This document shows positions 1-42,848 of a stretch of DNA of 42,848 nt, in pieces (within the stretch, counting starts at the first letter, position 1; each line of letters begins with the position of its first letter). The translations under genes and the position numbers were made by a program. The notes under the pieces are model-generated. The model was not told the origin of the DNA. It did not search any database and worked only from the letters and a program-made list of their open reading frames with translations. This DNA is from a virus (lineage: Duplodnaviria > Heunggongvirae > Uroviricota > Caudoviricetes): the IMG/VR virus record IMGVR_UViG_2563366985_000002, positions 1-42,848 of that record; one strand, given 5' to 3'.

Positions 1-1236
1 CTACGATAACCGCGCATTCAACATGGCTATCTGTTCGTCGTTCATGTCATCAATCCACATACCGTAAATTTCATACACCATCTGCGCAGTTTCATGCCCC
101 ATTTGGCTGGCTATAAATGCCGGGTTCGCTCCTGCCGTCAACAGCCAGCAGGCAAAAGTATGCCGCGTATGGTACGGATTACGGCGGCGAATACCAGCAC
201 GTTTTACTGCTGCATTCCACCTTGCCCCCAAACTGCTTACCGAGTAATAAGGTTTTTGTTTTCCGTTACACACCCTGGGCATGAAAACAAAATGCAGTTT
301 TTGCTTTTCGGTTCTGCCGTACTCCCGATGATAAAAGGTGATTTCGCTTTTGCGATGATGCCCGGTCAGTTTGTATTGCTCCTTCAGTGCTTCAAGAGCA
401 GGCTGCAGTAGTGTTACTGTTCGGATCCCGGCATTTGTTTTTGGGGGACCGAACATATCAAGTATCGTCAGGTTTCTTCTGACATTCACTATTCCCTTTT
501 CGAGATCCACATCCTCCCACGCCAGAGCTGCCAGTTCCCCGTGACGAAGTCCTGAGTAAACGGCAAATTTCCACAAGTTCTGGCTCTGTCCTTTTTCACT
601 TTCCATTAATGCATTGAATTCTGTTTTAGATAACGGATCAGGCTTTATTCTGTTTCGCTGTAATTTTTTTACTCCTTCAAATGGTTTGGTTGATATAAAT
701 CCCGACTGATACGCAAAACGCAACAGCGAACAGAGCAGGGCGATATAGTTATCAACTGTGCGCACGGTTCTTCCTTTTTTGTTGGATCTTGGATTATCCA
801 GGTAAAGCGTTTCTCCATGCAGCAGTTCATTCCGGTAGTTTAAGATATCGCTATAACGAATATGTGATATCGGGGTACTTTCACAAATTATTATTCTGAG
901 TGTTTTTAATTGTGATTTCGTTTTCTTCATTGTGTTTGTTGTTAACTCTGTCTCTTTAATTTTTGTCCAGATATCACAAAGCTCTCCGAACGTTTTTATG
1001 ACTCTCGTTGTCACCATTTTTGCCCCAGTGCTGGACTGGGGAAAACGTCTTAAATACTCAAATTCACCGGAGTTTATTTCATGAACTATCAGCGATCTTA
1101 AATTTCCGGCCTTTTTAATATTACTGTTTGTAATCTCCCAGCCTTTTAATGTTTCCCGACATCGTTTTCCTCGAAACATGAACCAGATGCGAATGTATCT
1201 ACCTCTAATCTCGACACCTGTTGGTAATTTAGACAT
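1..1236 (-). CDS. intR: Phage integrase, tyrosine recombinase (Rac-type)
   Basis: 411-aa ORF; C-terminal tyrosine-recombinase motifs (R..HTRHT..Y region); translation recognised as Rac IntR; sits at prophage left end next to excisionase. Confidence 0.9.
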   Translation of the reverse strand: MSKLPTGVEIRGRYIRIWFMFRGKRCRETLKGWEITNSNIKKAGNLRSLIVHEINSGEFEYLRRFPQSSTGAKMVTTRVIKTFGELCDIWTKIKETELTTNTMKKTKSQLKTLRIIICESTPISHIRYSDILNYRNELLHGETLYLDNPRSNKKGRTVRTVDNYIALLCSLLRFAYQSGFISTKPFEGVKKLQRNRIKPDPLSKTEFNALMESEKGQSQNLWKFAVYSGLRHGELAALAWEDVDLEKGIVNVRRNLTILDMFGPPKTNAGIRTVTLLQPALEALKEQYKLTGHHRKSEITFYHREYGRTEKQKLHFVFMPRVCNGKQKPYYSVSSLGARWNAAVKRAGIRRRNPYHTRHTFACWLLTAGANPAFIASQMGHETAQMVYEIYGMWIDDMNDEQIAMLNARLS

Positions 1237-1237
1237 A

Positions 1238-1453
1238 TCATGAGTCTTTGATAAACTGATTTATCTTTGGATAGTTGTACCAGATAATCCCTCGTTTGCT
1301 GTCTGGCTTACCTAAAGGAGATACTCGTTTGAAGTGGAAGCCCTCCACCCAACAGTTCTGGCGGTATGCTTCAATTTGTCTGGCCCCCAGACCAGTGCGA
1401 AGCATCAGGCCGTATTCAACCATCCACTCTTCATTAAAGATTACTTGTGCCAT
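1238..1453 (-). CDS. Excisionase-like protein (Rac XisR/YdaQ-like)
   Basis: Small ORF immediately upstream of int with stop 1 nt from int start; start placed at the internal Met ([10 protein letters not shown]...) giving 71 aa; position typical of xis. Confidence 0.65.
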
Positions 1454-1531
1454 CGCATCACCTCTGGCAGGCGCCAATGTTAGACTGAAATTGACGCCCG
1501 ATGTTGATTATTAATAATCAGCTATGAAGTT

Positions 1532-1741
1532 TTAATTTGAATACAATGCAATTCTCGAGGACTGAAGTTTCTCGCAATTAAAATTTATCAGTTTTACTTT
1601 CTGCTCTCTGGAAACGCCTGCTTCTTTTTTACCTGAGAGCATTTTTTCGCATTCTGATTTCGTTAGTTTAGATTTTGAATATCTTGTCCAGTTAGTAGGA
1701 GTGCCACCTTCCTTTTCAATAGTGGCGGTAATTTTATACAT
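1532..1741 (-). CDS. ydaC: Small prophage protein YdaC-like
   Basis: ORF with GAGGTG Shine-Dalgarno before the MYKITATIEKEGG start; 69 aa; sits between ralR and xis as in Rac. Confidence 0.5.
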   Translation of the reverse strand: MYKITATIEKEGGTPTNWTRYSKSKLTKSECEKMLSGKKEAGVSREQKVKLINFNCEKLQSSRIALYSN

Positions 1742-1928
1742 GAACACCTCCATTATTATTTCCAGTGGTTCGTTTATTCCATCTTTCGAGTGCTTCTTTT
1801 TCACTTCCACCATAACCGGTTCGGGATTCGCATCCGTTACACTTCGCTCGGTAATATCCTGAAATGGCTTTCACCGTTACTGATGGACAACCACAAAATG
1901 GACATGGTTTAACATTGTCATATCTCAT
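1734..1928 (-). CDS. ralR: Restriction-alleviation protein, Lar family (RalR)
   Basis: 64-aa product MRYDNVKPCPFCGCPSVTV...CNGCESRTGYGG with two Cys pairs (zinc-ribbon-like); recognised as Rac RalR/Lar. Confidence 0.8.
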   Translation of the reverse strand: MRYDNVKPCPFCGCPSVTVKAISGYYRAKCNGCESRTGYGGSEKEALERWNKRTTGNNNGGVHV

Positions 1929-1984
1929 AATTTTTCTCATAAAAAATATTTCAAGTTGGCGGTGCATTACACCGCCAGGCTGAA

Positions 1985-2794
1985 TTATTCCTCTGAATTA
2001 TCGATTACACTGTATTCCCCGGTTAATACAGAGGAATCTGCAGGATCGATTGTCAGTGGTTCCTTTTCATCCATTGATACTGCACGCTGGATCTCAATTG
2101 ATACGGGCAGATATTTGAACAGGCGACGAATAGCCGTTTTCTTTGCCATTTCTTCCCAGTGAGTTACCCACGGCCCGTTATTACCAGCTTTACTCAGGCT
2201 GCGCACCAGCTCAATCTGTTTGCGCGTCATAACTTCAAACTGAGTACCTCCGTCTTTCAGTCTTGCGACAGCATAGACGTGGGTAACCGGGGCATCTTCG
2301 TTTTCTCCCGGGCGGTGTATTAACTTTTCATCAAGGCCAAATTCGAAGCTAAACTCGTCACCTTCACGGACAACACGGGCTGACAGGCTGGCGATTTGAC
2401 CAGAACGGCGAGCCAGATCAATCATGCCGCGATAGCCAATGATTAGCTGAACGTTCTTTTTACCGCTCTTTTCGTTTTTATTACCAAAAGGCAGTAAATA
2501 TGCATGACCGAGGGCGCTACCTGGCTCAAGTCCGAGCTGTGAACACTGTACGATCGCACTGACAAAACTCATAGTGTCACAGTTTCCTAACGCCGGAACT
2601 TTACGAATTTCTGTGGTGGCGATACGGATCATACGTTCAGCCGTCATATGGCGTGGAAGAGCTGCTGCCAGTTGCTCTTTCATTGATGGCTGGTTAATAA
2701 AACTAATCACGTCGCTATTTTTAACTGCTGCTGGTGCACGGTTTCCCTGAGTTTTTTGCAGATCGGCTTTTGCGATTGGTGGTTGCTTAGTCAT
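1985..2794 (-). CDS. recT: RecT single-strand annealing recombinase
   Basis: Translation from [16 protein letters not shown]... recognised as RecT (269 aa); start trimmed from the longer six-frame ORF; overlaps recE stop as in the recET operon. Confidence 0.9.
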
Positions 2795-5387
2795 TTGCAT
2801 ATTCCTTAGCCCAGCGGGGCAGTGATAATGTCTTAATAGCTGGCCATTCATCGGTATTCAGGCAGTCAGACAGGGTTCGCAGATTGCGGTGATATTCCTG
2901 TTGACCTGCCAGTTTTGCTTCTTCGCCCATCATGAAAATTTCAACCGGATAACGTCCGCATTCAATAGTTGTGCTGGCAACCAGAAAAACGAAAGTTGGC
3001 TGCACTCCAAACTGTGCTTCATAACCGTCACTGTAGAATGCATCCTGAACGTGATAGCGGTAGTCGTAATAAGCGGTTTTGAATCGTTGAATATCCGCCG
3101 TAGTTTTCACGTCCATGATCCAGTGAAATTCAGGGATAATTTTGTCCGGACGGCACCGACACAAAATTCCTGTTTCAGGATCTTCCCAGTAAATTGATGA
3201 TTCAGCGTGTCCGGCGCTTTCAACAAGCCATTGCCCCAGCGGCAAAGCCATAACGCTTTGATACATGAGTTCAATTTTCCGGCCTTCTTCCGCAGTGATA
3301 ACCGTTTTTCCTGTGCTTGCGCATTCCATCAGAAACGCTTTCTCTTCTTCTTTTCCGGCGTTTGTACGGCGGTTAAATTCAGGTGCTACGATAAAGCGGT
3401 TACTGAATTCTTCCGGTTCAAGTACCCGGCAGTGGAAAGCAGTTCCTAAATCGAGCGTTTTTGTCTTTGTGGTGTCCACGGGGGCATTTTTACGCCACAA
3501 ATATAGTGCCGGAGTATCAGCAATGTCATCGAGCTGAGACTTACTGATACCGGGACCCGCGTGGTAATTCTCATTCGAAATTCCGTAATAAATACCTGGC
3601 TCTATGTCTTCTACGATTACGGGATCTGCGACTTCGCCAGTTTCATCACTGCAATCGCGATGCGGATCGCTGCCAGCATTCTCATTGTGCGGATGTTCAG
3701 CGCCTTCCATTTCCTCCGGATCATTTTCCTTAGCTTCAACCTGACTCTCTTCATCGAATGTTTCCTGGTATGTTGCGTCGCCCATCACCGCACCACAGTC
3801 AGGGCAGTTATCCCCGCCAGTCTGGCCGCAGGCATTGCAGGCTATTTCCGGTTCCTGTTGCACTACTGGCTCAGGTTGATTCATATCTGGGCTGGTTTTT
3901 TCCGTTTCTGGCTGGTTCTGGTACACACAATCGCGAGTCTGGATCCCCTTTACCCATTTCGGATCGTTCGGGTCGCTAATTCCGTCAACAAATTCACCAC
4001 GTGATGCAGCAAGCAATTTATCGTCATCGACAGGATTTTTTGATGGAATGTTTTTCCGGGCTTCATGGAGTTCTGCCCGCAGTTCCTGATATTTCGCATC
4101 AACAGAATTTACCTGTGACTGAGCATCCAGCGGCTGCGTGTCCTGATGATGTTCAGTTGCGTCCGGTTCCATTGTTTCAGCCTCTCCCTGTTCAACTGCC
4201 GTTGTTCCAGATGGTTGCGGTTTTTCTTCATCATCCTGTTTTCCTTCTTCTGTTACTCGCTGCGGCATCGGGGCAGAGGAGCGACCGCAGGCAATATCCA
4301 CGATTTCCGGATCAGGGTTGGCATGATCGGTTTCAGTCAGTACTTTGTTCAGATATTCAGTGACGTGCGCGGGGATGACCTCGATCCCAATTGGTGCTTC
4401 TTTTACGGACGCAACCACGATGGCGCGGGAATAATCCAGCCCGCCAGGCATGGTGATGAATTTGTCGCGGAAAACAGAAAAGGGCGGTTTATTTTCAGCG
4501 ATAATTTCCTCAATGCGTTTAGCGTGTGCCGGATGAAGGTTATAGATGTCCAGATCCATTGAACGGGCCAGTACGCCAGTGGCTACGTCGCGCGCCAGTG
4601 ACGTCAGATCGTGTACGAAACCTTCGCCGCGATCGGTGAGGTTTCCGCCGCCAGCATTAGCACCGGAAGCCGTGCGAGTGATGTGTGAAACACGATTACC
4701 CTTCATCCACTCTTTTGTCAGCAGTCCTCGATCGGTGTAGTCAGCGTTCAGGTATGCTTCGAAAAAAGCAGTTATCAGTCCCAGGTTTGAATTACCAGGA
4801 TTAGGGAAAACTTTGTCAGTGTCACGAACCAGTTTGTGGAGTTCGCGAATTTCCAGCGGGTCGAGCAGGCTGGTTTTGTGGGAAACAGCCAGGGCAGTAA
4901 CAGCCGGTAGTTCTTCAGCCCGAGCAATGTGTAATGCCTGGAGTCCGTCGCGTGAAACGTGCGTTACCGGTTTTTCGCTGCCGTGTTGAGCAAGCCAACG
5001 AATGGGCAGTTCCTGGCCAGAAATTGGGAGTAGCATATTCTCCTCAATCTCAGTCATGTCTTCGCCGTTGACGTTGGTATTGCCTTGATAGTGAGCGTTG
5101 TCTGGTGCTGCTCCCGGTTTTAGTTCCCATGTCATGGAGTCTTTGCTGAGTTGATAGCGTTCACTCCAGGTAAAATCGATCTCACCTTCAGCGGGCAGGT
5201 CATTAACGACAGGAAAATTCGTGGCAACAGCTTTAAAATAGCTGCTCAGTTTTTTACCTGACTTAACGATCAGGTAGTCCAGAGTGGCACAGGTCGATTC
5301 AAAATCGTTGCTTGCCCACAGGACGACGTCAGGTTCACCGGATGATTTTTTCGCTTTCCGTAACAGGAAGAGTGGTTTTGTGCTCAT
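2787..5387 (-). CDS. recE: Exodeoxyribonuclease VIII (RecE)
   Basis: 866-aa ORF recognised as RecE; directly upstream of and overlapping recT. Confidence 0.9.
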
Positions 5388-5495
5388 TGTTTTTTAACCT
5401 CAACTCAGATTAAAATTCGTTTTGTTCAGTGAATGATCTTGCCGGATACACACTGTTCATAGCCTGCGCCATACGCAGGCTATTTCTTTCAGATT

Positions 5496-5765
5496 TCACC
5501 TTTTAATTTCATTGCAATTAGAGTTGCCAGAAATTCGGCTTTTTTTTTCTGCGGGCAGATTCTTTCCGATATGCACCAGGCACATTTTTTTGACACCTTC
5601 ATCAAGTGTTTTTACGTTGCCTGATGGACCATCGATATCAACCACAGTGAATGGGGTTTCTTTATTTTCTGTTTTAATTACGTAGCCAATGCGCTTTCCT
5701 TCCAGATTCACCTCGTGAACAATGTCATCGGTAGTTACAACAGTGGCTTCATAATTGGTAATCAT
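5496..5765 (-). CDS. racC: RacC-like prophage protein
   Basis: Translation MITNYEATVVTTDDIVHEVNLEGKRIGYV... recognised as RacC N-terminus; C-terminal tail after a T9 run at about 5536-5544 looks different from what I recall, so a length variant or frameshift is possible. Confidence 0.6.
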   Translation of the reverse strand: MITNYEATVVTTDDIVHEVNLEGKRIGYVIKTENKETPFTVVDIDGPSGNVKTLDEGVKKMCLVHIGKNLPAEKKSRISGNSNCNEIKR

Positions 5766-5839
5766 GTTTTTCTCCTTAATTAAGGTTGAGCGAATACCTG
5801 CCATTTCTGGCATAAATTCAGTTTCGAATAGTCAATTAA

Positions 5840-6010
5840 TTAAAGTTCATGTGCCATCTGGTCTTTTTCGGCACAAGCTTCACTGCAATATTTTCTCGGT
5901 TCGTCTTTTGATAAAATCCCGTGCATGAAGTGAAGCATTCTTTCAATAGCTTTGCTTTCTTCAACGTCTTTTTTGCAAAGGTGGTAAGCACATTTTATTT
6001 TCTTAGTCAT
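5840..6010 (-). CDS. ydaE: Small zinc-ribbon-like protein YdaE
   Basis: Hand-translated 56-aa [59 protein letters not shown] (absent from the ORF track because under 60 aa); its ATG overlaps the kilR stop (ATGA). Confidence 0.6.
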   Translation of the reverse strand: MTKKIKCAYHLCKKDVEESKAIERMLHFMHGILSKDEPRKYCSEACAEKDQMAHEL

Positions 6011-6231
6011 CACCATGACTCCGCCTTTACAGGTAAACCATCACGACCGAGGAAGACTTTAATCATGCGGTCAGTAATGAATGTTTTTGTGGTCAGGTTA
6101 CGAATATATAGTTTTCGCTTTTTAATATTGTTTGCCGAGGCAATATATGTCCGGCCTTCATGAAGAACATAATCGCCAGGAGTCACACACTGACGTGGTA
6201 TTTCATCAGTTCCGAAGTGATGTGCAATCAT
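6010..6231 (-). CDS. kilR: KilR, FtsZ-targeting cell-division inhibitor
   Basis: 73-aa product [40 protein letters not shown]... recognised as Rac KilR; start trimmed from the 77-aa ORF. Confidence 0.75.
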
Positions 6232-6672
6232 AATTATCTCCATTTTTACAAATGAACTTTGTTGATGCGGTGTCTGGTGCCTCCAGGTGACTGCAACCAG
6301 TTAACAATTACAGTCGGCTTTCCCACCCAAACCAATAAGGACTAACATGACTTTTAACTGTGCCACGTGCGCTTAGCCGCATTCACCGCATCACAAAATT
6401 TACTTTAAAAAGGGCGGACATCAGCCGAACTTCAAGAAAAAAACTGATGCCGCCAGGACTACACACAGCAATGTCGTTATTTACAACCGGAGGCGCACTC
6501 CCACCATTTAAATTTAACAGACAAGACCGACTCTTTATGGATATCGGAAATGCGCCTTCGTGTTGTGCCCGGTTTTATTTCACCACCTCCGGGCTTCGGT
6601 GGTCTCGGCTATACCCCTACAGCGAGAGCTTGTGTTAACATTTCAATACCCTTACAGTTGAGAGTTATTGAT

Positions 6673-7161
6673 ATGTTGGATGTATTTACTCCATTGTTGA
6701 AACTTTTTGCTAACGAGCCACTCGAAAGACTTATGTATACGATTATCATTTTTGGTCTCACTCTCTGGCTGATACCGAAAGAGTTTACTGTCGCATTCAA
6801 TGCTTATACTGAAATACCTTGGCTCTTTCAGATTATCGTTTTTGCCTTTTCTTTCGTGGTCGCCATTTCCTTCTCAAGATTGCGAGCACATATTCAAAAG
6901 CATTATTCATTACTACCAGAGCAACGAGTATTGCTTCGTTTATCTGAGAAAGAAATCGCTGTATTTAAAGATTTCCTTAAAACAGGAAATCTTATTATCA
7001 CTTCTCCTTGCCGTAACCCGGTTATGAAAAAATTAGAACGGAAGGGCATCATTCAACATCAGAGTGATAGCGCAAACTGTTCTTATTATCTCGTCACCGA
7101 AAAATACTCCCATTTTATGAAGTTATTCTGGAACAGCAGGAGTAGACGTTTTAATCGTTAG
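6673..7161 (+). CDS. sieB: Superinfection exclusion protein SieB
   Basis: 162-aa product from MLDVFTPLLKLFANEPLERLMYTIIIFGLTLWLIPKEF... with hydrophobic membrane-spanning segments; recognised as Rac SieB; upstream part of the six-frame ORF is extension. Confidence 0.8.
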   Translation: MLDVFTPLLKLFANEPLERLMYTIIIFGLTLWLIPKEFTVAFNAYTEIPWLFQIIVFAFSFVVAISFSRLRAHIQKHYSLLPEQRVLLRLSEKEIAVFKDFLKTGNLIITSPCRNPVMKKLERKGIIQHQSDSANCSYYLVTEKYSHFMKLFWNSRSRRFNR

Positions 7162-7313
7162 CTTACTGTGTGCTTCTCCAACCATCGGCGCGCACCAGTT
7201 TCGGTTTTAAATGTTTTGCTTTTGGTATACGTCATGGCAGTGAACGTTCCATCCTGGTTGGGGAACACGCCGCACACCAGGGATTCGTTGTTGCCGAGGT
7301 CGATTTTTTGCAT
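7158..7313 (-). CDS. ydaF: Small prophage protein YdaF
   Basis: Hand-translated 51-aa ORF MQKIDLGNNESLVCGVFPNQDGTFTAMTYTKSKTFKTETGARRWLEKHTVS; convergent with sieB, 4-bp overlap. Confidence 0.5.
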   Translation of the reverse strand: MQKIDLGNNESLVCGVFPNQDGTFTAMTYTKSKTFKTETGARRWLEKHTVS

Positions 7314-7323
7314 TTTGCGAATC

Positions 7324-7458
7324 TCACATCTTGTTGCTACGTATAGCGACTTCTGCCTGCCAGAGATCCCAGTCGTTGCTGCGTAAAGCCTGCACAGCCT
7401 GGTTGTAAGTGATACCGCAACAATCCATCAAATACTGAACTACTTCGTAATGCACCAT
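7324..7458 (-). CDS. ydaG: Small prophage protein YdaG
   Basis: Hand-translated 44-aa ORF MVHYEVVQYLMDCCGITYNQAVQALRSNDWDLWQAEVAIRSNKM, first gene downstream of the leftward promoter. Confidence 0.5.
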   Translation of the reverse strand: MVHYEVVQYLMDCCGITYNQAVQALRSNDWDLWQAEVAIRSNKM

Positions 7459-7627
7459 CTTATCTCTCCCCTTAACGCCGGGTGGCGGAACTAACTGCTG
7501 CACTGCAAAATTTGAATCCCGCCGTCATGTTCATACGCCTCGGGCTGGCTACTTAACCCCTTACCACTGCCTGGTAACTCGAAGTATTGCCCGGCGTTCT
7601 GTGGGGCGGGGTGGGTGGTATGCTGGA

Positions 7628-7693
7628 ACTATAGGTAATGCCTAATTGATTGTCAATAGGCTATGCCTAATGTTTTGAGCGTAACCTAATAGG
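7628..7693 (-). promoter_or_regulatory. Leftward promoter/operator (PL/OL-like): TTGACA-17 bp-TATAGT on minus strand with (G/A)CCTAAT operator motifs
   Basis: Minus-strand reading gives TTGACA (plus 7651-7656) and TATAGT (plus 7628-7633) with a 17-nt spacer; three CCTAAT motifs at 7640-7646, 7665-7671, 7684-7690; inverted copy of the 8296-8340 region. Confidence 0.5.
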
Positions 7694-7766
7694 TGATGGC
7701 GACAGCAGAAAGTGATGGGGGGGTTAAATAACGGAATCCAGGAGTTTTCCGTCAGACCATATAAGT

Positions 7767-8243
7767 TTAAGTTCCAGTTTTTGTGATGTTCTGGCTTTTC
7801 CGTTCAGATTCAAGAGCTTTCAGATACTTACCCACTTTCATTTCCATCGCTGCTATGTAGGCGCGAACATCGTGGTCAACCCAATCTGGTTCTGTAGCAT
7901 TTCCAGATAACAGGAAAGCTACAATCGCTCTTATTTCATCAGAGGCTGCTTGATAAAGGTTGTTTATATCTAAAAGTTCACTTTTTGTATCTGAATTGGT
8001 GGGGGTTGGTATGGGGTATTCGTTAAGCCCCCAATGCTCTGGACCAACAACATCAGAAAAGAAACGCCATAATTCTGGAAGTTTATCTTTACTTATAGAG
8101 CCTTTCTTAATCCAGTCATAAATTGATGGTGGTTGGACTTTAAAGTGGCGTGCGACCTCCGCCTTTGATTTGACGGATCCCGATGCGATTTTTTTGTTAA
8201 TGGCCTGCTCTATCGCTCGGCCTAAGTCTTTACCACTAAGCAT
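7767..8243 (-). CDS. racR: Prophage repressor RacR
   Basis: 158-aa ORF recognised as RacR; divergent from ydaS; N-terminal HTH-like segment. Confidence 0.85.
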   Translation of the reverse strand: MLSGKDLGRAIEQAINKKIASGSVKSKAEVARHFKVQPPSIYDWIKKGSISKDKLPELWRFFSDVVGPEHWGLNEYPIPTPTNSDTKSELLDINNLYQAASDEIRAIVAFLLSGNATEPDWVDHDVRAYIAAMEMKVGKYLKALESERKSQNITKTGT

Positions 8244-8264
8244 TGCTTAATATTCTCCTATGCG

Positions 8265-8346
8265 CATTACATTAGGCAATCCCTACCCTTACTGCATTAG
8301 GCACAGCCTATTGACAATTGCGTTAGGCGTCGCCTAATATTTCTGT
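8265..8346 (+). promoter_or_regulatory. Rightward promoter/operator (PR/OR-like) for ydaS: TTGACA-TAATAT with ATTAGGC operator repeats
   Basis: TTGACA at 8311-8316, TAATAT at 8335-8340; ATTAGGC at 8271-8277 and 8296-8302, GTTAGGC at 8322-8328, inverted GCCTAAT at 8332-8338; lies between divergent racR and ydaS. Confidence 0.5.
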
Positions 8347-8366
8347 GTGTTTTTGGAGTTCATTCG

Positions 8367-9978: not shown

Positions 9979-9984
9979 CTGACC

Positions 9985-34173: not shown

Positions 34174-34199
34174 CGCAATTAATGACATAGGAGGCTCCT

Positions 34200-35162
34200 G
34201 TGAGTTCAGGTGCAAAGGTTATCTCGGCATTTATCCGGGAGACGGTTGCAGGCACTACGCCAGCAAGTGGTGACTGGAGTTTATTAAAACGCACAAGCTG
34301 GGGAGTAAAACCCACCCAGAATAAAGGCGAAAATAATGAGATTGGTGGCTCCCGGATGGCTCAGGGGGCGACGCCTGGCACTGTGGATGTCGGCGGTGAT
34401 GTTGGTACCAAATTTCGCTGGGGTCAACATGATGATTTTCTTGCATCCTGTTTCGGCGCGGAATGGTCAGGCGATTCTCTGACAATGGGGAATGAGCGAA
34501 TAACATTTTCTCTGGCGACCTATGCGTCCGATGTCGGAATTGCCTCTGTCGTCAGAGGAGCGCAGGTTGGCTCATGGAAAATGCAGATCCCTAACGACGG
34601 CGATATTACAGCGACCGTAACCTTTGCCGGACTGGACTGGGAATCAAAGGCCGATGATACGAATTTTATCAAAGGCGAACCTGTGGATAGTGCAGGAAAG
34701 CTACGTTATTCGTTTAAGGAGGTTTCAGCAGTAAGCCTGAATGGTGTTGCCGGAGGTAACGGTTTTTGTATCGACAGTTTTGATATTCAGTTCGATAACA
34801 AACTCCAGACACAGCGTTGTATCGGGACTGGCTCGCCTTATGCAGGAGCAAATATTCCGACTACTTTTACACCGTCCGGTACGGTGACGCTTTCATGGTC
34901 TAAAGCCGCGTGGGAAATCTGGAGTAAAACACTGACTGGAGAAACAGTTCCGTTCAGCTTCACGCTTTCGAATGGAGAGGGGGCATACACTTTCAGTTTC
35001 CCGAAGGTTCAGGTGTCAGGTGAATGGCCTGATGGGGGTAATAGCGACATTATCCAGGTTCAATTGAGCATTACCGCAGCAGATGAAGCACCTACGATAA
35101 CCAGAAAAAAAAATTCCCCGGCTGCCGTGATCGCAAAAGCCAGTGCTGAGGCGATTAGTTGA
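34200..35162 (+). CDS. Major tail (tube) protein
   Basis: 320-aa ORF with AGGAGG Shine-Dalgarno, located before the frameshifted chaperone pair and tape measure. Confidence 0.6.
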   Translation: MSSGAKVISAFIRETVAGTTPASGDWSLLKRTSWGVKPTQNKGENNEIGGSRMAQGATPGTVDVGGDVGTKFRWGQHDDFLASCFGAEWSGDSLTMGNERITFSLATYASDVGIASVVRGAQVGSWKMQIPNDGDITATVTFAGLDWESKADDTNFIKGEPVDSAGKLRYSFKEVSAVSLNGVAGGNGFCIDSFDIQFDNKLQTQRCIGTGSPYAGANIPTTFTPSGTVTLSWSKAAWEIWSKTLTGETVPFSFTLSNGEGAYTFSFPKVQVSGEWPDGGNSDIIQVQLSITAADEAPTITRKKNSPAAVIAKASAEAIS

Positions 35163-35210
35163 TTTTCCGTTATTCCTCCTGTGGTACTGCCCTACAGGGG
35201 GACGCATTGA

Positions 35211-35672
35211 ATGAGGTTATGGATGTTTATTCTTAATCAGAAAATTATCATTGGTGGAGAACGCTGGTTTACGCCAATGAAGGACTTAAAACCTGTAGAC
35301 GGGTTAAAACTGTTGGTGGCAAGCAGCGATAACGATCAGTATCGCTCCCGTAATGCATTAATCCGTCGCCACATTGAGAAAATGGATGCCAGTTTGCACG
35401 TCGGAACGAAGGAGTTTGATATTTCAAAGGTTTCCGAGGTGGATTCTGTTGATGATTTACTCATTGATAATGCCGCTCGTTATCTGCTGAAAGACTGGAA
35501 AGGGGTTGGTGAACTGGTTAATGGTGTTGAGGTTGCACTGGAATATACGGCAGAACGAGGGATCGCGCTGCTTAAGCAGAATCCAGAGTTGTACTGGCAG
35601 ATCCTTGCAGAAGCAGCCAGCATCGCCCAGGGTAAAGAGCAGCAGAAGCAGGATACGATAAAAAAGCCATAG
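35211..35672 (+). CDS. Tail assembly chaperone (gpG-like)
   Basis: ORF ending at a slippery heptamer just before its stop; precedes the tape measure gene. Confidence 0.6.
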   Translation: MRLWMFILNQKIIIGGERWFTPMKDLKPVDGLKLLVASSDNDQYRSRNALIRRHIEKMDASLHVGTKEFDISKVSEVDSVDDLLIDNAARYLLKDWKGVGELVNGVEVALEYTAERGIALLKQNPELYWQILAEAASIAQGKEQQKQDTIKKP

Positions 35673-35980
35673 CTGCCCAGCGGTGGTTATCGGAGTTCGG
35701 GGGAGAAAGGGGGGAAAAGGCAAGATGGAAGCGAGAAAAACTCAGGTTGCCACCGATACCGGAACCAGAAATAGACCCGGTGCTTAAGGAGTTGTTGTAC
35801 GCCTATTCGGTAATATCCCGTGCCCGACGTTATGCTGGAATGGCTGGGGTGCCTTTGCCTTTATCTCTGACAGAGATAAATGAATATTTAGCCACTCATC
35901 CGGTATTGATTGAGCGCGATGAATTTGAAGCAGTGATCTTTGCACTGGATGACCAGTATTTTCAGGAGCAGTGTGTGTAG
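35211..35980 (+). CDS. Tail assembly chaperone frameshift fusion (gpGT-like), made by -1 shift at 35660-35666
   Basis: The -1 frame after the slippery site reads ...AIAAQRWLSEF...PPIPEPEIDPVLKELLYAYSV... to a stop at 35978-35980, matching the 77-aa six-frame ORF. Confidence 0.55.
35660..35666 (+). promoter_or_regulatory. Programmed -1 ribosomal frameshift slippery site A_AAA_AAG
   Basis: Heptamer AAAAAAG ends 4 nt before the chaperone stop codon; the -1 frame stays open to 35980. Confidence 0.6.
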
Positions 35981-36102
35981 TTGTTAATTACGTACACTCT
36001 GTTACAGAGATGTGATGGTGTCTTTAATTAAATCGATGATGCTCCTGGAGAAAAGCATTGCGTGGCCTCGTAATCGCTATATCTACTATTATGTCGCCTG
36101 AA

Positions 36103-36126
36103 ACCCACTTCGCGGTGGGTTTTTTG
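36103..36126 (+). terminator. Hairpin plus T-run upstream of tape measure gene
   Basis: ACCCAC-ttcgcg-GTGGGT followed by TTTTTGTTGT. Confidence 0.4.
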
Positions 36127-36145
36127 TTGTCAGGAGTTTTAATAA

Positions 36146-39100
36146 ATGGCAGAGCAAACCTCGCGTCTCGCAATAATTATTGATAGCACTGGAGCGAAAA
36201 ATAATGCTGACAATCTGACCTCCTCATTAGTCAAAATGACGCAGGCTGGGGAAACTGCTGCAAATAGCGCAGGGAAAGTGACTAAGGCAACAGAAGATGA
36301 GAAGAACGCGCTCGCAAAATTAAAAGTAGCTATTGATCCAGTTGGTGCCGCAATTGATACTGTCGGTCGACGCTATTCTGAATTAAAGAAATTTTTCGAT
36401 AAAGGGCTTATTGATAAAGAAGAATATGAATTTCTTGTCCGTAAACTTAATGAAACCACAGAGGAATTGAGCGGGGTTGCGCAAGCGCAGAGAGAAGCCG
36501 AGAAGGCCGGAAAACTTGCTGCCGCCCAGCAGGAAGCGCAGGCTCAGGCCTTTCAAAGAATGCTGGACAAGATCGACCCTCTGGCTGCGGCGCTAAGAAA
36601 TCTTGAACAACAGCATGATGAACTTAATGCTGCGTTTGCATCCGGGAAAATAAATGGTTCTCAGTTTGAGAATTATAGCCGAAAAATACAGGAAACACGG
36701 CGAGAGCTTACCGGAGAGGCTCAGGCAGAGCGAGAAGCAGCAAAAGCGCATGATGAACAGGTTGTTGCTTTGCAACGTCTGATTGCTCAACTTGATCCTG
36801 TCGGAACTGCTTTTAATCGTCTGGTAGAACAACAGAAACAGCTCAATGAAGCAAAAGCTAAGGGGATGCTTTCTCCTGAAATGTATGAGGAGCTTTCTGG
36901 AAAACTTCGTGCTATGCGGAGTGAGCTTGAGGTTACTCAATCACAATTAAGCAAAACCGGAATGTCGGCAAAACAAACGGCTTTTGCTATGCGCATGTTG
37001 CCTGCACAAATGACGGATATTGTTGTTGGGTTGTCCACTGGTCAGTCGCCATTTATGGTGTTAATGCAGCAGGGCGGCCAGCTAAAAGATATGTTCGGTG
37101 GGATTGGCCCGGCGATCAAAGGTGTAGGTTCTTATGTGCTGGGATTAGTTAATCCTTTTACCCTAGCCGCAGCAGCCGTTGGGGTCTTAGGACTGGCTTA
37201 CTATAAAGGCTCTCAGGAGCAGGACGAATTTAATAAATCTCTTATTCTTACCGGAAATCAGTTGGGGACAACCAGCGGGCAATTGGGCGATATAGCTCAA
37301 CGTGCCGGGAATGCGGCTGATTCGACAACTGGTGCTGCGGCGGCAGTATTAAATCAGCTTGTGCGTTCGGGAAAGGTAGCGAGCAGTTCGCTGGAGCAAG
37401 TGACGACAGCGATAGTAAAAACGAGCGAAGTAACAGGAATATCAACCGAACAACTGGTTAATGACTTCAATGAAATTACAAAGGATCCTGTCAGTGCCAT
37501 ATCAAAACTTAATGATCAGTACCATTTTCTGACACTTGCGACTTATAACCAGATTAAGGCGCTACAGGATGAAGGGAACCAGCAGGAGGCCGCCCGCATT
37601 GCGACAGAAGAATACTCATCCTCAATGATCCAGCGCACCAACCAGATTAAAGAAAATCTTGGTTATCTTGAGACTGCATGGAAAGCTGTCGCAGACTCCG
37701 CAAAATGGGCATGGGATTCCATGCTGGATATTGGCCGTGAGACCTCCCTTGATCAAAAAATCTCAGATGTTCTCCGTCAAATTGATGAAATAGAAAAAAA
37801 TACCCGACCCGGAGTTTTCGGGTTAGGTGGCATTGGAGATGGCGGAGCTCAAAATAAAAGGCTGGCACGATTAAAGCAGCAATTGGGCGTACTTCAAGCA
37901 GAAAAAATTGCTCAGGACGTACTAAATTCATCAATAAACGATTACAACAAGCGACAACAGGAAGGAATTGAACTCAGACAGAGAGCAGATGCCTTTTCAA
38001 AACAATATCAGACCCGGGAGCAGCAGAGAGCTAGTGAACTTGCAAAACTGGAAAAGCTAAAGAATCAGTATTCAAAGGAAGAATATAATAATCTTATCGC
38101 TCAAATAAATGAGCGTTATAAAGATCCAAAGCAACCAAAGGCGAAAGGTTATTCTGATGATGCAGCCCAACGAATGATTGATCATCTGAATCAACAGAAT
38201 GCGTTACTAAGTTCACAAGCTGAGTTGACCGTTAAATTAAGTTCCTCTGAACAGGAACTGGTTAAGTGGCGTCAGCGGATTGCCGACCTAGAGTCACGAC
38301 CATCAACGAAATTAACCCAGGATCAGAAATCGCTTCTCTTACACCGGGAAGAAATAACCGCGTTGATGGAGAAAAATGTTGCGATTGAAAAAAATAACAG
38401 GCTAATCAAGGAATCCGCCGAAATAACAGCATGGCGTGATTCATTGCAGGCTTCGATTGATAATCGTCAGCAGGGGTATGATATTCAGATTGCTGGTTAT
38501 GGGGTTGGCGATAAAAATCAGCAACGCCAGCAGGAATTACTGCGGATTGAACATGGATATAACAATCAGCGTCTGCAACTTGAACGTGACTATGCAGATA
38601 AATCCCGTGGAATGTCAGATCATGTTTTTCAAGAGAAAATGCAGGCTCTGAATGATGCTCTGGAACGGGAAAAAGAAATTGTCAGACAGAAAAACGAGCA
38701 GCTCGATATTCAGGCAGGAGACTGGGTTAGTGGTGCCTCCCAGGGATTCAATAACTGGCTGGATGACACTAAGGATATCAGTGAGCAGATAAAATCAACC
38801 ACGACTCAGATGTTTGATGGGATGACCGATGCGCTGGGTGATTTTGTCACGACAGGCAAGGCAAATTTTCGTTCTTTCGCTACTTCCGTGATTTCGGATC
38901 TTAGTCGAATAGCATTAAAGGCTTCAATTACTGGGATTTTCGACAGCATTAGTAACAGTTCTTCTGGGGGGGTTTTAGGAACTATCGGGAGTGCTATTAG
39001 TAAATTTATTCCGAATGCAAAGGGCGGTGTTTATGAGTCTCCGTCATTGAGCACGTATTCGAACGGTATTTATGATTCCCCGCAATTTTTTGCTTTTGCA

Positions 39101-39379
39101 AAAGGGGCTGGTGTTTTTGGTGAGGCTGGACCGGAAGCTATTATGCCATTAACACGAACTTCCGATGGTTCTCTTGGTGTCAGAGCTATTAATAGTAAAA
39201 GTGGTAATGGAGGCGGAGATATTACCTATGCCCCTGTATACCAAATCACTATTCAAAATGACGGCCAGAATGGAGAGATTGGCCCTCAGGCAATAAAAGC
39301 ACTTATGGGGATGGTTGATCAGCGGGTGCAGGGCAATCTGTTAAATATGCGACGTGATGGGGGAATGTTAAGTGGCTAA
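36146..39379 (+). CDS. Tail tape measure protein
   Basis: 1077 aa, long coiled-coil-rich, Ala/Gln/Glu-rich; CAGGAG Shine-Dalgarno; follows the chaperone pair. Confidence 0.85.
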
Positions 39380-39710
39380 TACGGAAGAATTTCACTGGTT
39401 ACCAGAGGATGGAATGAAAACAGAAAATAAACCATCGATAAAAACTGTAAGATTTGGTGATGGTTATGAGCAACGAAGTCCAAATGGACTTAATCATTCT
39501 CTGCGCGTTTTCACCTGTGATTTCAAAGTTGAGGCGAATGAACGTGATTCATTTGAAAAATTTTTAGCCCGGCATGAAGGCTATAAATCTTTTTTTTGGC
39601 GCCCGCCGGGTATTAACAGAAAAATCAGAGTGGTGTGTCGAACGTGGTCAGCGACAGAACATATCACCTATACCGATTTTTCGTGTCAGTTTGACGAAGT
39701 GGTGATCTGA
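39372..39710 (+). CDS. M: Minor tail protein M (lambda-like)
   Basis: 112-aa ORF after tape measure; lambda gpM-like size and position. Confidence 0.75.
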
Positions 39711-40408
39711 TGCAGGACATACGACAGGAAACACTGAATGAATGCATCCGTGTGGAGCAGACGGCCAGCGTGGTGCTCTGGGAAATTGATCTGACAGAGG
39801 TCGGTGGGGAGCGTTACTTTTTCTGCAATGAGCAGAATGAAAAAGGTGAACCGGTTACCTGGCAGGGGCGAAAGTATCAGGCGTACCCCATTCAGGGAAG
39901 CGGCTTTGAGATGAACGGTAAGGGCAGCAGCGCACGTCCCACACTTAAGGTATCTAACCTGTATGGCATGGTCACCGGGATGGCCGAAGACCTGCAGAGT
40001 CTGGTCGGCGGAACGGTGGTCAGGCGTAAGGTTTATGCCCGTTTTCTGGATGCGGTGAACTTCATCAACGGAAACAGCGAAGCCGATCCGGAGCAGGAGG
40101 TGATCAGCCGCTGGCGCATCGAGCAGTGCAGCGAACTGAGCGCGGTCAGTGCCTCCTTTGTACTGTCCACGCCGACGGAAACGGACGGCGCTGTTTTTCC
40201 GGGGCGCATCATGCTTGCTAATACCTGCACCTGGACCTATCGCGGTGATGAGTGCGGTTATCACGGTCCGGCGGTCGCGGATGAATATGACCAGCCGACA
40301 TCCGAAATCACGAAGGATAAATGCAGCAAATGCCTGAGTGGCTGTAAGTTCCGCAATAATGTCGGCAACTTTGGCGGCTTCCTTTCCATTAACAAACTTT
40401 CGCAGTAA
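39710..40408 (+). CDS. L: Minor tail protein L (lambda-like)
   Basis: 232 aa, same length as lambda gpL; Cys cluster near C-terminus. Confidence 0.8.
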   Translation: MQDIRQETLNECIRVEQTASVVLWEIDLTEVGGERYFFCNEQNEKGEPVTWQGRKYQAYPIQGSGFEMNGKGSSARPTLKVSNLYGMVTGMAEDLQSLVGGTVVRRKVYARFLDAVNFINGNSEADPEQEVISRWRIEQCSELSAVSASFVLSTPTETDGAVFPGRIMLANTCTWTYRGDECGYHGPAVADEYDQPTSEITKDKCSKCLSGCKFRNNVGNFGGFLSINKLSQ

Positions 40409-40413
40409 ATCCC

Positions 40414-41157
40414 ATGACAGAGACAGAATCAGCGATTCTGGCGCACGCCCGGCGATGTGCGCCAGCGGAGTCGTGCGGCTTCGTGGTGAGAACGTCGGAA
40501 GGGGAAAGATATTTTCCCTGCGTGAATATCTCCGGTGAGCCGGAGGATTATTTCCAGATGGCTCCGGAGGACTGGCTGCGGGCAGAGATGCAGGGTGAGA
40601 TTGTGGCGCTGGTCCACAGCCACCCCGGTGGCCTGCCCTGGCTGAGTGAGGCTGACCGGCGGCTGCAGGTGCAGAGTGATTTGCCATGGTGGCTGGTCTG
40701 CCGGGGGGCGATTCATAAATTCCGCTGTGTGCCGCATCTTACCGGGCGGCGCTTTGAGCACGGGGTGACGGATTGTTACACGCTGTTCCGGGACGCTTAC
40801 CATCTGGCGGGGATTGAGATGCCGGATTTTCATCGCGAGGATGACTGGTGGCGTAACGGCCAGAATCTCTATCTGGATAATCTGGAGGCCACAGGGCTGT
40901 ATCAGGTGCCGTTGTCATCAGCACAACCGGGTGATGTGCTGCTGTGCTGTTTTGGTTCATCGGTGCCGAATCATGCCGCCATTTACTGTGGTGACGGCGA
41001 GCTGCTGCACCATATTCCTGAACAACTGAGTAAACGAGAGAGGTATACCGACAAATGGCAGCGACGCACACACTCCCTCTGGCGTCACCGGGCATGGCGC
41101 GAATCTGCCTTTACGGGGATTTACAACGATTTGGCCGCCGCATCGACCTGCGTGTGA
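40414..41157 (+). CDS. K: Tail assembly protein K (JAB/MPN plus NlpC/P60-like domains)
   Basis: 247 aa; JAMM-like HSHPGG motif; lambda gpK-like position. Confidence 0.8.
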   Translation: MTETESAILAHARRCAPAESCGFVVRTSEGERYFPCVNISGEPEDYFQMAPEDWLRAEMQGEIVALVHSHPGGLPWLSEADRRLQVQSDLPWWLVCRGAIHKFRCVPHLTGRRFEHGVTDCYTLFRDAYHLAGIEMPDFHREDDWWRNGQNLYLDNLEATGLYQVPLSSAQPGDVLLCCFGSSVPNHAAIYCGDGELLHHIPEQLSKRERYTDKWQRRTHSLWRHRAWRESAFTGIYNDLAAASTCV

Positions 41158-41702
41158 AAACGGGGGCCGAAGCAGTCCGGGCGCTGACCACACAGCTTCC
41201 GGCGTTTCGTCAGAAACTGAGCGACGGCTGGTATCAGGTACGCATTGCCGGGCGTGATGCAGGTGAAACTGAATTATCAGCCCGTCTTAATGAACCGCTG
41301 GCAAATGGTGCCGTGATCCACATTGTGCCGCGTCTGGCGGGAGCCAAAAGTGGCGGTCTTTTTCAGGCTGTGCTGGGGGCGGCGCTGATTGCGGTGGCAT
41401 GGTGGAACCCTGCAGGTTGGTTGGGGGCTGCCGCAATTACAGGAATGTATGGTGCGGGGGCCAGTATGGTGCTCGGTGGTGTGGCGCAGATGCTGGCACC
41501 GAAAGCCAGAACTCCCCGTACACAGACAACGGATAACGGCAAACAGAACACCTATTTCTCCTCACTGGATAACATGGTTGCCCAGGGCAATGTTCTGCCG
41601 GTTCTGTACGGTGAAATGCGCGTGGGGTCACGGGTGATTTCGCAGGAGATCAGCACGGCAGATGAAGGAGATGGTGGTCAGGTTGTGGTGATTGGTCGTT
41701 GA
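41055..41702 (+). CDS. I: Tail assembly protein I (lambda-like)
   Basis: Begins MAATHTLPLASPGMARICLYGDLQRFGRRIDLRVKTGAEAVRAL..., recognised as lambda gpI; overlaps K as in lambda. Confidence 0.8.
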   Translation: MAATHTLPLASPGMARICLYGDLQRFGRRIDLRVKTGAEAVRALTTQLPAFRQKLSDGWYQVRIAGRDAGETELSARLNEPLANGAVIHIVPRLAGAKSGGLFQAVLGAALIAVAWWNPAGWLGAAAITGMYGAGASMVLGGVAQMLAPKARTPRTQTTDNGKQNTYFSSLDNMVAQGNVLPVLYGEMRVGSRVISQEISTADEGDGGQVVVIGR

Positions 41703-41762
41703 TGCAGAATGTTTTGTGTGAAACCGCCTCAGGGCGGTTTTGTCGTTTCTGGAGCGTGAGGA

Positions 41763-42848
41763 ATGGGTAAAGGCAGCAGTAAGGGGCATACCCCGCGCGA
41801 AGCGAAGGACAACCTGAAATCATCCCAGATGCTGAGCGTGATAGACGCCATCAGTGAAGGGCCGATTGAAGGTCCGGTGGACGGATTAAAAAGTGTGCTG
41901 CTGAACAGTACGCCGGTGCTGGACAGTGAGGGGAATACCAATATCTCCGGTGTCACGGTGGTGTTCCGGGCAGGTGAGCAGGAGCAGACACCGCCGGAGG
42001 GATTTGAATCCTCCGGCTCCGAGACGGTGCTGGGTACGGAAGTGAAGTACGACACGCCGATTACCCGGACCATCACGTCTGCAAACATCGACCGTCTGCG
42101 CTTTACCTTCGGTGTGCAGGCACTGGTGGAAACCACCTCAAAGGGGGACCGGAATCCGTCGGAAGTCCGCCTGCTGGTTCAGATACAGCGTAACGGTGGC
42201 TGGGTGACGGAAAAAGACATCACCATTAAAGGCAAAACCACCTCGCAGTATCTGGCCTCGGTGGTGGTGGATAACCTGCCGCCGCGCCCGTTTAATATCC
42301 GGATGCGCAGGATGACGCCGGACAGCACCACAGACCAGCTGCAGAACAAAACGCTCTGGTCGTCATACACCGAAATCATCGATGTGAAACAGTGCTACCC
42401 GAACACGGCACTGGTCGGCGTACAGGTGGACTCGGAGCAGTTCGGCAGCCAGCAGGTGAGTCGTAATTATCATCTTCGCGGGCGCATTCTGCAGGTGCCG
42501 TCGAACTATAACCCGCAGACGCGACAATACAGCGGTATCTGGGACGGAACGTTTAAGCCAGCATACAGCAACAACATGGCCTGGTGTCTGTGGGATATGC
42601 TGACCCACCCGCGCTACGGCATGGGAAAACGTCTTGGTGCGTCGGATGTGGATAAATGGGCGCTGTATGTCATCGGCCAGAATTGCGACCAGTCGGTGCC
42701 GGACGGCTTTGGCGGCACGGAGCCGCGCATCGCCTGTAATGCGTACCTGACCACACAGCGCAAGGCCTGGGATGTGCTCAGTGATTTCTGCTCGGCGATG
42801 CGCTGTATGCCGGTATGGAACGGGCAGACGCTGACGTTCGTGCAGGAC
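41763..42848 (+). CDS. J: Tail tip/host specificity protein J, N-terminal part (truncated by window end)
   Basis: Open frame from MGKGSSKGHTPREAKDNLKSSQMLSVIDAISEGPIEGPVDGLK... to the window end, recognised as near-identical to lambda gpJ; missing from the ORF track because no stop is reached. Confidence 0.9.
   Translation, partial: MGKGSSKGHTPREAKDNLKSSQMLSVIDAISEGPIEGPVDGLKSVLLNSTPVLDSEGNTNISGVTVVFRAGEQEQTPPEGFESSGSETVLGTEVKYDTPITRTITSANIDRLRFTFGVQALVETTSKGDRNPSEVRLLVQIQRNGGWVTEKDITIKGKTTSQYLASVVVDNLPPRPFNIRMRRMTPDSTTDQLQNKTLWSSYTEIIDVKQCYPNTALVGVQVDSEQFGSQQVSRNYHLRGRILQVPSNYNPQTRQYSGIWDGTFKPAYSNNMAWCLWDMLTHPRYGMGKRLGASDVDKWALYVIGQNCDQSVPDGFGGTEPRIACNAYLTTQRKAWDVLSDFCSAMRCMPVWNGQTLTFVQD

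Follow-up and report, generated by a model that had tools for sequence, protein, structure and literature searches.

A Rac-family prophage segment that probably comes from a full-length element and retains the late genes missing from K-12 Rac

We analyzed a 42,848-bp stretch of DNA (IMG/VR record IMGVR_UViG_2563366985_000002, positions 1 to 42,848), referred to here as the window, by which the whole of this stretch is meant. Our results make it highly probable that the window is the left part of a full-length temperate prophage belonging to the Rac family, i.e., the lambdoid elements that integrate at ttcA, and that the Rac prophage carried by Escherichia coli K-12 is a derivative of such an element by three deletions. 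This reading is built on homology, colinearity, open reading frames (ORFs) and domain assignments, all of which were observed directly.

The K-12 reference was NC_000913.3, 1411899-1434958, and the K-12 coordinates of the aligned blocks are numbered within this extracted region. Three blocks were found, all colinear with the window:

Block 1: window 1-11203, K-12 region 3001-14202, 99.96% identity.
Block 2: window 21333-23763, K-12 region 14201-16631, 99.4% identity.
Block 3: window 35321-37080, K-12 region 16630-18389, 99.9% identity.

Neighboring blocks abut in K-12, where they overlap by only 2 bp, and the window carries between them the sequence that K-12 is missing. The first missing block (10.1 kb, window 11204-21332) starts in the 3' part of ydaW, ends in the 5' part of Rz and includes the remainder of ydaW, the DUF977 gene, cargo genes, the DUF1367 gene, ybcO, Q, the tRNA genes, the holin and lysozyme genes and the 5' end of Rz. 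The second (11.6 kb, window 23764-35320) starts in the 3' part of ynaK, ends in the 5' part of the tail chaperone gene and includes most of ynaK, a glycosyltransferase gene, the terminase, head, neck and tube genes and the 5' end of the chaperone gene. The third (~8.5 kb) extends from position 37081, in the tape-measure gene, to lom. The deletion edges therefore fall in the window at 11203/11204, 21332/21333 (inside Rz), 23763/23764, 35320/35321 and 37080/37081. Beyond the window, for which the prophage of E. coli strain ET358 served as a proxy, the match with K-12 picks up again in lom and the 5' part of stf, with 90-91% identity.

Because all of the K-12 segments map colinearly onto the window, K-12 Rac appears to be the less complete derivative. 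Judged from this alignment, K-12 ydaW, rzpR, ynaK, ydaY and tmpR/ynaA are best read as deletion stumps at the edges of the missing blocks, which would return to these orphan genes their identities as parts of a DUF1627 protein, Rz, the ParB-like protein that partners a glycosyltransferase, a tail assembly chaperone and a tape-measure protein, respectively; K-12 'ydaY' is a 3' chaperone remnant fused to the ynaK stump. A first-pass annotation, made from the sequence without database searches, had called the early region (intR to ydaW, and trkG) Rac-type and the element a less decayed relative of K-12 Rac, and the 99.96% identity over 1-11203, the 99.4% identity of the trkG segment, the colinear blocks and the stumps at their edges support both statements. 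It was also correct that K-12 lacks the region from nin to lysis, although K-12 is in addition without the whole block of packaging, head and tail-shaft genes.

Other features that mark the Rac family are likewise present. The integration module intR/xisR lies at 1-1453, the genes for RecE/RecT, KilR, SieB, RacR-YdaS-YdaT and YdaU/YdaV follow in the Rac order, and trkG is situated between the lysis and the packaging genes. Position 1 of the window is the stop codon of intR, with the left attachment site (attL) ~75-100 bp further left, outside the window; the right end falls at codon 362 of J, with the 3' part of J, the tail fibers and attR beyond it. The prophage of the closest complete relative continues for ~9 kb past the window end. 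Thus, the window covers the left ~83% of an element of the Rac family in its full-length form, with both attachment sites outside it, and the description 'apparently complete' in the first-pass annotation is an overstatement.

In a megablast comparison with 5,426 complete E. coli genomes, the best overall relative was found in ET358, a sediment isolate, with 98.98% identity over the whole window and 25 gap openings (direct alignment). None of these genomes matched the window exactly, which therefore derives from a genome outside this set. The elements of strains ET358, Ecol_316 and SZQ1 all occupy the Rac locus, flanked by ttcA on one side and uspF/ompN on the other, and in ET358 a 26-bp direct attachment-site repeat encloses ~51.85 kb. 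Positions 1-25,000 differ from ET358 at a handful of sites, and 25-33 kb and 39-42.8 kb have diverged from it. The 25-43 kb part matches Ecol_316 at 99.9% and ET358 at ~93-99%, the worst kilobase having up to 105 differing sites (~10%). Over 21501-42848, the Ecol_316 prophage differs by 30 substitutions and not a single indel (99.9% identity), and many further clinical isolates were alike. The window itself thus appears, from these alignments, to be a recombinant between two lineages within one prophage family. At least 80% of the late half was present in one place in 685 of the 5,426 complete genomes, and the early-plus-cargo version of the window in only 14-16 of them; the conservation of the late module across the 685 genomes suggests purifying selection and recent function. 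At the right end of Ecol_316-type prophages, the iron/manganese transporter genes sitABCD are located between the tail-fiber genes and uspF (Ecol_316 locus 42784-46233).

We also compared the window with phage lambda (NC_001416), using blastp with E<1e-3 for the proteins. The identities with lambda were as follows:

L: protein 94%, DNA 91.0%.
K: protein 96%, DNA 94.3%.
I: protein 79%, DNA 80.8%.
J (first 362 amino acids): protein 97.8%, DNA 95.6%.
Rz: protein 95%, DNA 92.7%.
Rz1: protein 98%.
M: protein 42%, DNA 52.5%.
H (tape measure): protein 29%, DNA 47.8%.

DNA similarity to lambda was restricted to two stretches, Rz/Rz1 and L-K-I-J. The tail-tip homology starts at lambda 13407, in the last bases of M; measured in ET358, the DNA is 92.7% identical over lambda 13407-18002. 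The G+C content (GC) changes from 0.456 to 0.571 at this M/L homology boundary, the value for lambda over the same stretch being 0.577. No lambda match at this threshold was obtained for the terminase, portal, scaffold, capsid, connector, terminator, tube and chaperone proteins, or for Q, the holin, the lysozyme, YdaU and YdaV. In place of the lambda head proteins Nu1/A, B, C/Nu3, D and E, the window encodes Terminase_2/Terminase_6, DUF4055, Mu-F-like, DUF6651 and P22-type coat proteins. A lambda-type tail shaft (Z, U, V, G/T, H) was not found either, H being the sole match and the tube and terminator belonging to other Pfam and PHROG families. The M-L-K-I-J tail tip is of the lambda type, with an M that is homologous but distant. 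The first-pass annotation had described M, L, K, I and J as lambda-type, J as near-identical to its lambda counterpart over the visible part, and the tail module as lambda-like. The near-identity of J was confirmed over 362 codons, and the lambda assignment stands for L, K, I and J, i.e., for the tail-tip cassette; it is overstated for M and does not extend to the tape measure, tube, terminator and chaperone. The whole-prophage alignment with K-12 Rac and lambda that the annotation had proposed accordingly returned a less decayed Rac, with a likeness to lambda limited to L-K-I-J and Rz/Rz1.

Mosaicism is usual in lambdoid phages, and the sharp lambda homology and GC boundary at the M/L junction could be taken to mean that a K-12-like Rac early region has recently recombined with an unrelated lambdoid donor of the nin, lysis, head and tail genes, giving a new chimera. 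The within-family recombination of the window (1-25000 ET358-like, 25-43 kb Ecol_316-like) fits this hypothesis, as does the published prophage Rac-SA53, which has an early region 91% identical to that of the window, yet is absent from the records that hold most of the late module and appears to have a different one. However, K-12 retains the 3' end of Rz, trkG, the 5' end of ynaK, the 3' end of the chaperone gene and the 5' end of the tape-measure gene, in the same order and at 99.4-99.9% identity. Because K-12 keeps fragments from the very parts that would be foreign, three deletions in the K-12 lineage are the simplest history. The same applies to the lambda-like genes: the lom gene and the 5' end of stf in ET358 match K-12 at 90-91%, which places L-K-I-J between two fragments retained in K-12, and because this block is flanked by tmpR and lomR, both kept by K-12, it appears to be ancestral to Rac and deleted in K-12. 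We consider a new chimera very improbable, and the words 'mosaic' and 'recombinant' of the first-pass annotation, if taken to mean a Rac early region with a foreign lambda tail attached, were not upheld.

The reading of the window as part of a full-length temperate prophage, with K-12 Rac as its deletion derivative, leads to the related issue of whether this copy is still active; the first-pass annotation had put it that the element may be inducible. All replication, lysis and morphogenesis genes inside the window are uninterrupted (J seen to codon 362), in agreement with the first-pass statement that the lysis cassette, the Q-like gene and the packaging and head genes are present and open. 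The chances that this copy is able to produce particles are roughly balanced, and a somewhat smaller share, falling a little short of one half, goes to the alternative that the element looks complete but is already cryptic, in that it may excise without giving infectious particles on account of regulatory or out-of-window lesions. The features that bear on this are:

5496-5765, minus strand: racC, with a frameshifted C-terminus.
7767-8243, minus strand: racR, encoding a repressor identical to that of K-12.
15865-16188, plus strand: hok/sok type I toxin-antitoxin (hok coding sequence 16033-16188; Rfam sok, 92 bits; PGAP Hok/Gef).
16209-17551, minus strand: insertion sequence IS421 (IS4 family); its inverted repeats of 25 bp are perfect, and its DDE transposase ORF of 372 codons is open.

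Several observations weigh against a full-length, functional element. The attachment sites attL and attR, the integration site, the 3' two-thirds of J and the tail fibers are out of view, and the side tail-fiber gene and the invertase gene, which are among these distal genes in ET358, are pseudogenes there. IS421 lies in the transcription path from the early to the late genes, between hok and DUF1367-ybcO-Q, where it is antisense to transcripts from the early-right promoter and may be polar on Q expression. No N-like antiterminator was recognized in the window. RacR gave a weak helix-turn-helix match only and no peptidase S24 (self-cleavage) domain in Pfam searches, and the Rem antirepressor, annotated in MN652886.1 (5745-6005) between hok and DUF1367, was absent from the window, ET358, Ecol_316 and K-12 by tblastn. 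With neither a RecA-cleavable repressor nor an antirepressor, i.e., because RacR is without S24 and there is no Rem, an SOS induction route is not evident; other routes may exist, e.g., RpoS-linked excision, as reported for K-12 Rac (PMC4632033). Finally, none of the matching GenBank 'phage' records is a virion-derived genome with this exact late module. These records had been considered as virion evidence and were rejected, since all are in silico prophage cut-outs: the vB_EcoS-* records (vB_EcoS-683R6 and others; ON470581-ON470616) are PHASTER predictions, and 'Salmonella phage SPF_0923' (ON032529.1, 28143-35262) contains sitABCD together with uspF, ompN and ydbK, which are genes of the host.

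The possibility of a cryptic element gains from IS421, the missing SOS route and racC, in which a T9 run at 5540-5548 (T8 in K-12 and ET358) replaces the last 16 residues by 14 others; this may be a homopolymer sequencing error, and to our knowledge racC has no known essential role. Decay in close relatives points in the same direction: ET358 has a truncated ynaK, a frameshifted glycosyltransferase gene, a truncated side tail-fiber gene (stf) and a truncated recombinase (invertase) gene, SZQ1, which carries the IS421, has a deletion of ydaU-ydaV, and Ecol_316 has a frameshifted ydaU-like gene. Because the alignment of ET358 with the window is only 98.98% with 25 gap openings, however, its pseudogene flags are not transferable to the window. 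KingRac, which is related to Rac, measures 49,357 bp and sits at the Rac locus of a mouse-gut E. coli B1 strain, makes tailed particles and is itself only weakly inducible by mitomycin C (PMC6731689, PMC12251178). On the other side, all in-window genes with a known requirement in replication, lysis and morphogenesis are open, and the purifying conservation of the late module in 685 genomes suggests recent function. IS421 is intergenic and bordered by a ~10-bp direct repeat, GGAGAAATCC, a clean target duplication; it is inserted in the hairpin GCGGGGAGAAATCCCCGC, directly 3' of hok and upstream of DUF1367-ybcO-Q. This site is empty, with an intact hairpin, in the Ecol_316 prophage (near position 9936 of its locus), and the element is 100% identical to IS copies elsewhere. 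Promoter-like sites occur between IS421 and DUF1367, though not above chance (the scan gave fewer hits than in shuffled controls). Neither IS421 nor the T9/T8 difference in racC had been mentioned in the first-pass annotation.

The gene content of the window is consistent with the assignment to a full-length Rac-family prophage. Genes run on the minus strand in the early-left part, to ~8.2 kb, and nearly all on the plus strand after that, giving two long transcription blocks. The overall GC is ~0.46; it is low in an island at 12-15.5 kb and climbs to 0.57 beyond ~39.7 kb. The early region, in addition to racC and racR, consists of:

1-1236, minus strand: intR (in the 99.96% K-12 block; name from PGAP in ET358 and K-12).
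1238-1453, minus strand: xisR (same basis).
1532-6231, minus strand: early-left operon rcbA, ralR, recT, recE, racC, ydaE, kilR (K-12 match, PGAP).
1557-1735, plus strand: RalA small RNA (Rfam, 225 bits).
1985-2794, minus strand: recT.
2787-5387, minus strand: recE.
6010-6231, minus strand: kilR.
6673-7161, plus strand: sieB, 27% identical to lambda SieB.
7158-7313, minus strand: ydaF, small ORF in a frame different from that of ydaG.
7324-7458, minus strand: ydaG, small ORF.
8367-8663, plus strand: ydaS, Cro-like (Pfam YdaS_toxin and P22_Cro).
8686-9108, plus strand: ydaT, CII-like (Pfam YdaT_toxin).
Within 9121-11908, plus strand: ydaU (DUF1376, O-like) and ydaV (DnaC/IstB-like ATPase) (Pfam).
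10754-11515, plus strand: full-length ydaW (DUF1627).
11531-11908, plus strand: DUF977 gene.

The sieB, ydaF and ydaG genes occupy the position of lambda N and sieB. The roles of YdaS as a Cro-like protein and of YdaT as the CII equivalent have been argued by Jobling (PMC5917428). A cargo island at 12199-15458, with a GC of 0.365, follows between the replication genes and hok:

12199-13881, plus strand: GmrSD-family type IV restriction enzyme (Pfam GmrSD_N and GmrSD_C; PADLOC HEC-06, E=4e-221).
14409-15458, plus strand: TPR protein, 349 amino acids.

The Rac family carries variable defense cargo, a GmrSD-type enzyme in this copy, and the Ecol_316 prophage has other genes at the position of the island as well as a repressor that differs from that of the window.

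Downstream of IS421 are the genes for late control, the tRNAs, the lysis cassette and a cargo gene (moron):

18001-18600, plus strand: DUF1367 gene (Pfam).
18600-18890, plus strand: YbcO, putative nuclease (Pfam).
18887-19429, plus strand: Q21-type antiterminator (DUF1133; Pfam and fold).
19763-19838, plus strand: tRNA-Thr(UGU).
19842-19916, plus strand: tRNA-Gly(UCC).
20604-20819, plus strand: phage-21-type holin (Pfam Phage_holin_2_1).
20819-21316, plus strand: lysozyme, RrrD-like.
21313-21777, plus strand: Rz, lambda-like.
21533-21718, plus strand: Rz1, lambda-like, embedded in Rz.
21915-23372, plus strand: trkG potassium transporter, cargo gene (99.4% to K-12, no amino acid differences from Ecol_316).

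The assignment of the Q-like protein was examined by sequence and by structure. Its match to Phage_antitermQ (PF06530) was borderline (26.5 bits, cut-off 26.0), with members of its family carrying both Pfam domains, and a sequence search against the PDB was not significant (E ~0.3). When the AlphaFold (AF2) model, which is of moderate confidence (predicted local distance difference test, pLDDT, 67), was compared with known structures, the top nine PDB matches were all phage-21 Q (TM 0.55/0.65, probability 1.0) and the next hit had E>2. On the grounds of modeled fold and gene position, the protein is predicted to be a phage-21-type Q. A terminator-like hairpin is found at 19510-19535, 80 bp past the stop codon of the Q-like gene, and we infer that it is tR'. 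The two tRNA genes lie between the Q-like gene and the lysis cassette, and the same pair is present in phage phi467 and in relatives; Stx phages have tRNAs at this position.

The late module begins with the packaging and head genes:

25201-25410, plus strand: small ORF.
25414-26508, plus strand: TerS.
26489-27790, plus strand: TerL (T4-type, Terminase_6).
27793-29199, plus strand: portal (DUF4055).
29183-30295, plus strand: minor head protein (Mu-F-like).
30400-31164, plus strand: scaffold (DUF6651).
31263-32402, plus strand: major capsid protein (P22-type).

The neck and tail genes follow:

From 32445, plus strand: neck, comprising a 58-amino-acid ORF, head-tail adaptor Ad1, head closure Hc1 and Neck1/tail completion (PHROG, Pfam).
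33781-34173, plus strand: tail terminator.
34200-35162, plus strand: tail tube.
35211-35980, plus strand: G/GT-type pair of tail assembly chaperones, in which the G-like ORF extends to 35672 (PHROG 313).
36146-39379, plus strand: tape-measure protein, 1077 amino acids.
39372-39710, plus strand: M-like protein.
39710-40408, plus strand: L.
40414-41157, plus strand: K.
41154-41702, plus strand: I.
41763-42848, plus strand: J, first 362 codons.

All 22 late genes are open, with 0-5 residue differences from Ecol_316 (0-1 for the packaging and head genes at 25201-32402), and the functional assignments (Pfam, PHROG) cover every morphogenetic step. The T4-type large terminase points to packaging that is probably of the headful type and not from cos. 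In the chaperone pair, a canonical slippery heptamer, A AAA AAG, occupies 35660-35666, with the stop two codons further on; in the -1 frame, reading can continue for another ~105 codons, to 35980.

Together, these genes make up a standard lambdoid layout: int-xis, RecET, the RacR/YdaS/YdaT switch, YdaU/YdaV, a nin-type region with cargo, a Q21-type antiterminator, and the lysis, packaging, head and tail genes. The virion would combine a T4-type terminase and a P22-type capsid with a non-lambda siphovirus neck, tube, frameshifting chaperone and tape measure, and a lambda-type L-K-I-J tip. In the lysogen, RacR would hold the promoter on the YdaS/YdaT side off; derepression would then allow rightward transcription up to the Q21-type protein, and this protein would in turn permit read-through of the hairpin at 19510-19535, so that transcription continues into the genes for lysis and morphogenesis.

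Directly upstream of the terminase genes, the window carries two genes that overlap by 8 bp and are both open:

23510-24298, plus strand: full-length YnaK, 262 amino acids, with ParB_N and a conserved C-terminal domain (Pfam, PHROG).
24291-25223, plus strand: TAGT-family GT-A glycosyltransferase, 310 amino acids (full PF20691 profile, E=5.5e-35; PHROG).

TAGT stands for 'TET-associated glycosyltransferase'. The pair matched PHROGs 620 and 842, the latter being that of the glycosyltransferase. The glycosyltransferase family has >8,000 database relatives and an invariant DDDY motif. Its sequence has no relative in the PDB; the N-terminal half of the structural model is confident and adopts a GT-A fold, its closest structural matches being SpsA, COLGALT1 and glycogenin, but the C-terminal half was modeled poorly, so that only the GT-A core is supported. 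The ordered, overlapping pair was also found beside the terminase genes in two unrelated phage contigs from metagenomes, whose head genes are of the HK97 or lambda type, in Lactobacillus phage phi jlb1, Nocardia phage NTR1, a Porphyromonas phage and the haloarchaeal virus HHTV-2, and in phages of other Proteobacteria. The homology covers the full length of both partners, with identities of 27-48% for the ParB-like protein and 27-47% for the glycosyltransferase. Homologues of the ParB-like partner were found in seven other phages and contigs, and a Vibrio phage retains only its C-terminal domain.

Previous studies described ParB-like activators of phage thymine dioxygenases (PMC13229309), noted in general that phage DNA glycosyltransferases neighbor ParB and terminase genes (bioRxiv 10.1101/2023.12.21.572611), and assigned the second glucosyltransferase of T2/T6 to PF20691 (PMC13216743). 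Two elements of a DNA-glycosylation pathway are in place in the window, a glycosyltransferase of a DNA-modifying family and a ParB-like partner. Neither a dioxygenase (5mYOX/TET-JBP) nor a dNMP hydroxymethylase was detected among the window proteins scanned or in the neighborhoods of the pair in other phages, although very divergent versions could escape domain scans. Phage glycosyltransferases can also act on proteins, as in the virion glycosylation of mycobacteriophages. We tentatively suggest, as an idea that is more likely wrong than right, that YnaK and the TAGT protein might constitute an uncharacterized packaging-linked modification system that works without a dioxygenase or hydroxymethylase and glycosylates phage DNA or a packaging or virion protein during packaging. 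That this prophage also encodes a GmrSD-type enzyme might speak against glucosyl-hydroxymethylcytosine being the product, a point offered as an observation and not as a claim. If the suggestion were true, K-12 ynaK would be the stump of a modification system. In any case, viruses of both bacteria and archaea conserve the pair.

Among known systems, the closest relatives of the window are K-12 Rac and the other elements at the same locus. It shares with K-12 Rac int/xis, RecET, kilR, sieB, racR-ydaS-ydaT, ydaU-ydaV, trkG and the chaperone and tape-measure fragments; apart from the deletions, K-12 differs by an IS5 in lomR, the window having instead IS421 after hok. With lambda, the window shares the overall gene order, L-K-I and the 5' part of J, Rz/Rz1 and the principle of G/GT frameshifting in the chaperone. 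In contrast, the terminase, portal, capsid, FI/FII, Z, U, V, G/T, Q, S and R show no detectable similarity, and the integrase, recombination, immunity and replication genes of the window are not those of lambda. The predicted fold of the Q-like protein is like that of phage 21 Q, but the sequence identity is only 14-17% and the window protein belongs to a separate Pfam family, DUF1133; the holin is in the same P21 holin S family as S21.

Full-size and active Rac-like prophages have already been published, and this type of element is known and common. KingRac, which shows that such elements can be active, takes the place of Rac when it lysogenizes K-12, also in the mouse gut, and apparently transduces flanking DNA (PMC6731689, PMC12251178), Sp10 and CP-933R of O157:H7 integrate at ttcA (PMC4632033), and full-sized Rac-like prophages carrying LT-II are attributed to Jobling in a citation in PMC5917428. 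KingRac, Sp10/CP-933R and Rac-SA53 resemble the element of the window in having the Rac locus or Rac-type early genes, a size of ~49-52 kb and a lambdoid organization. KingRac, compared by description only, has a reported tail of 249 nm, as opposed to the ~160 nm that we estimate from the 1077-amino-acid tape measure. Rac-SA53 (KU052037), an LT-II toxin carrier, matches 40% of window positions 1-21800 at 91% identity. The members of this group differ in their cargo, which consists of GmrSD, the TPR protein and hok in the window and of LT-II in published Rac-like prophages, and their immunity regions vary as well.

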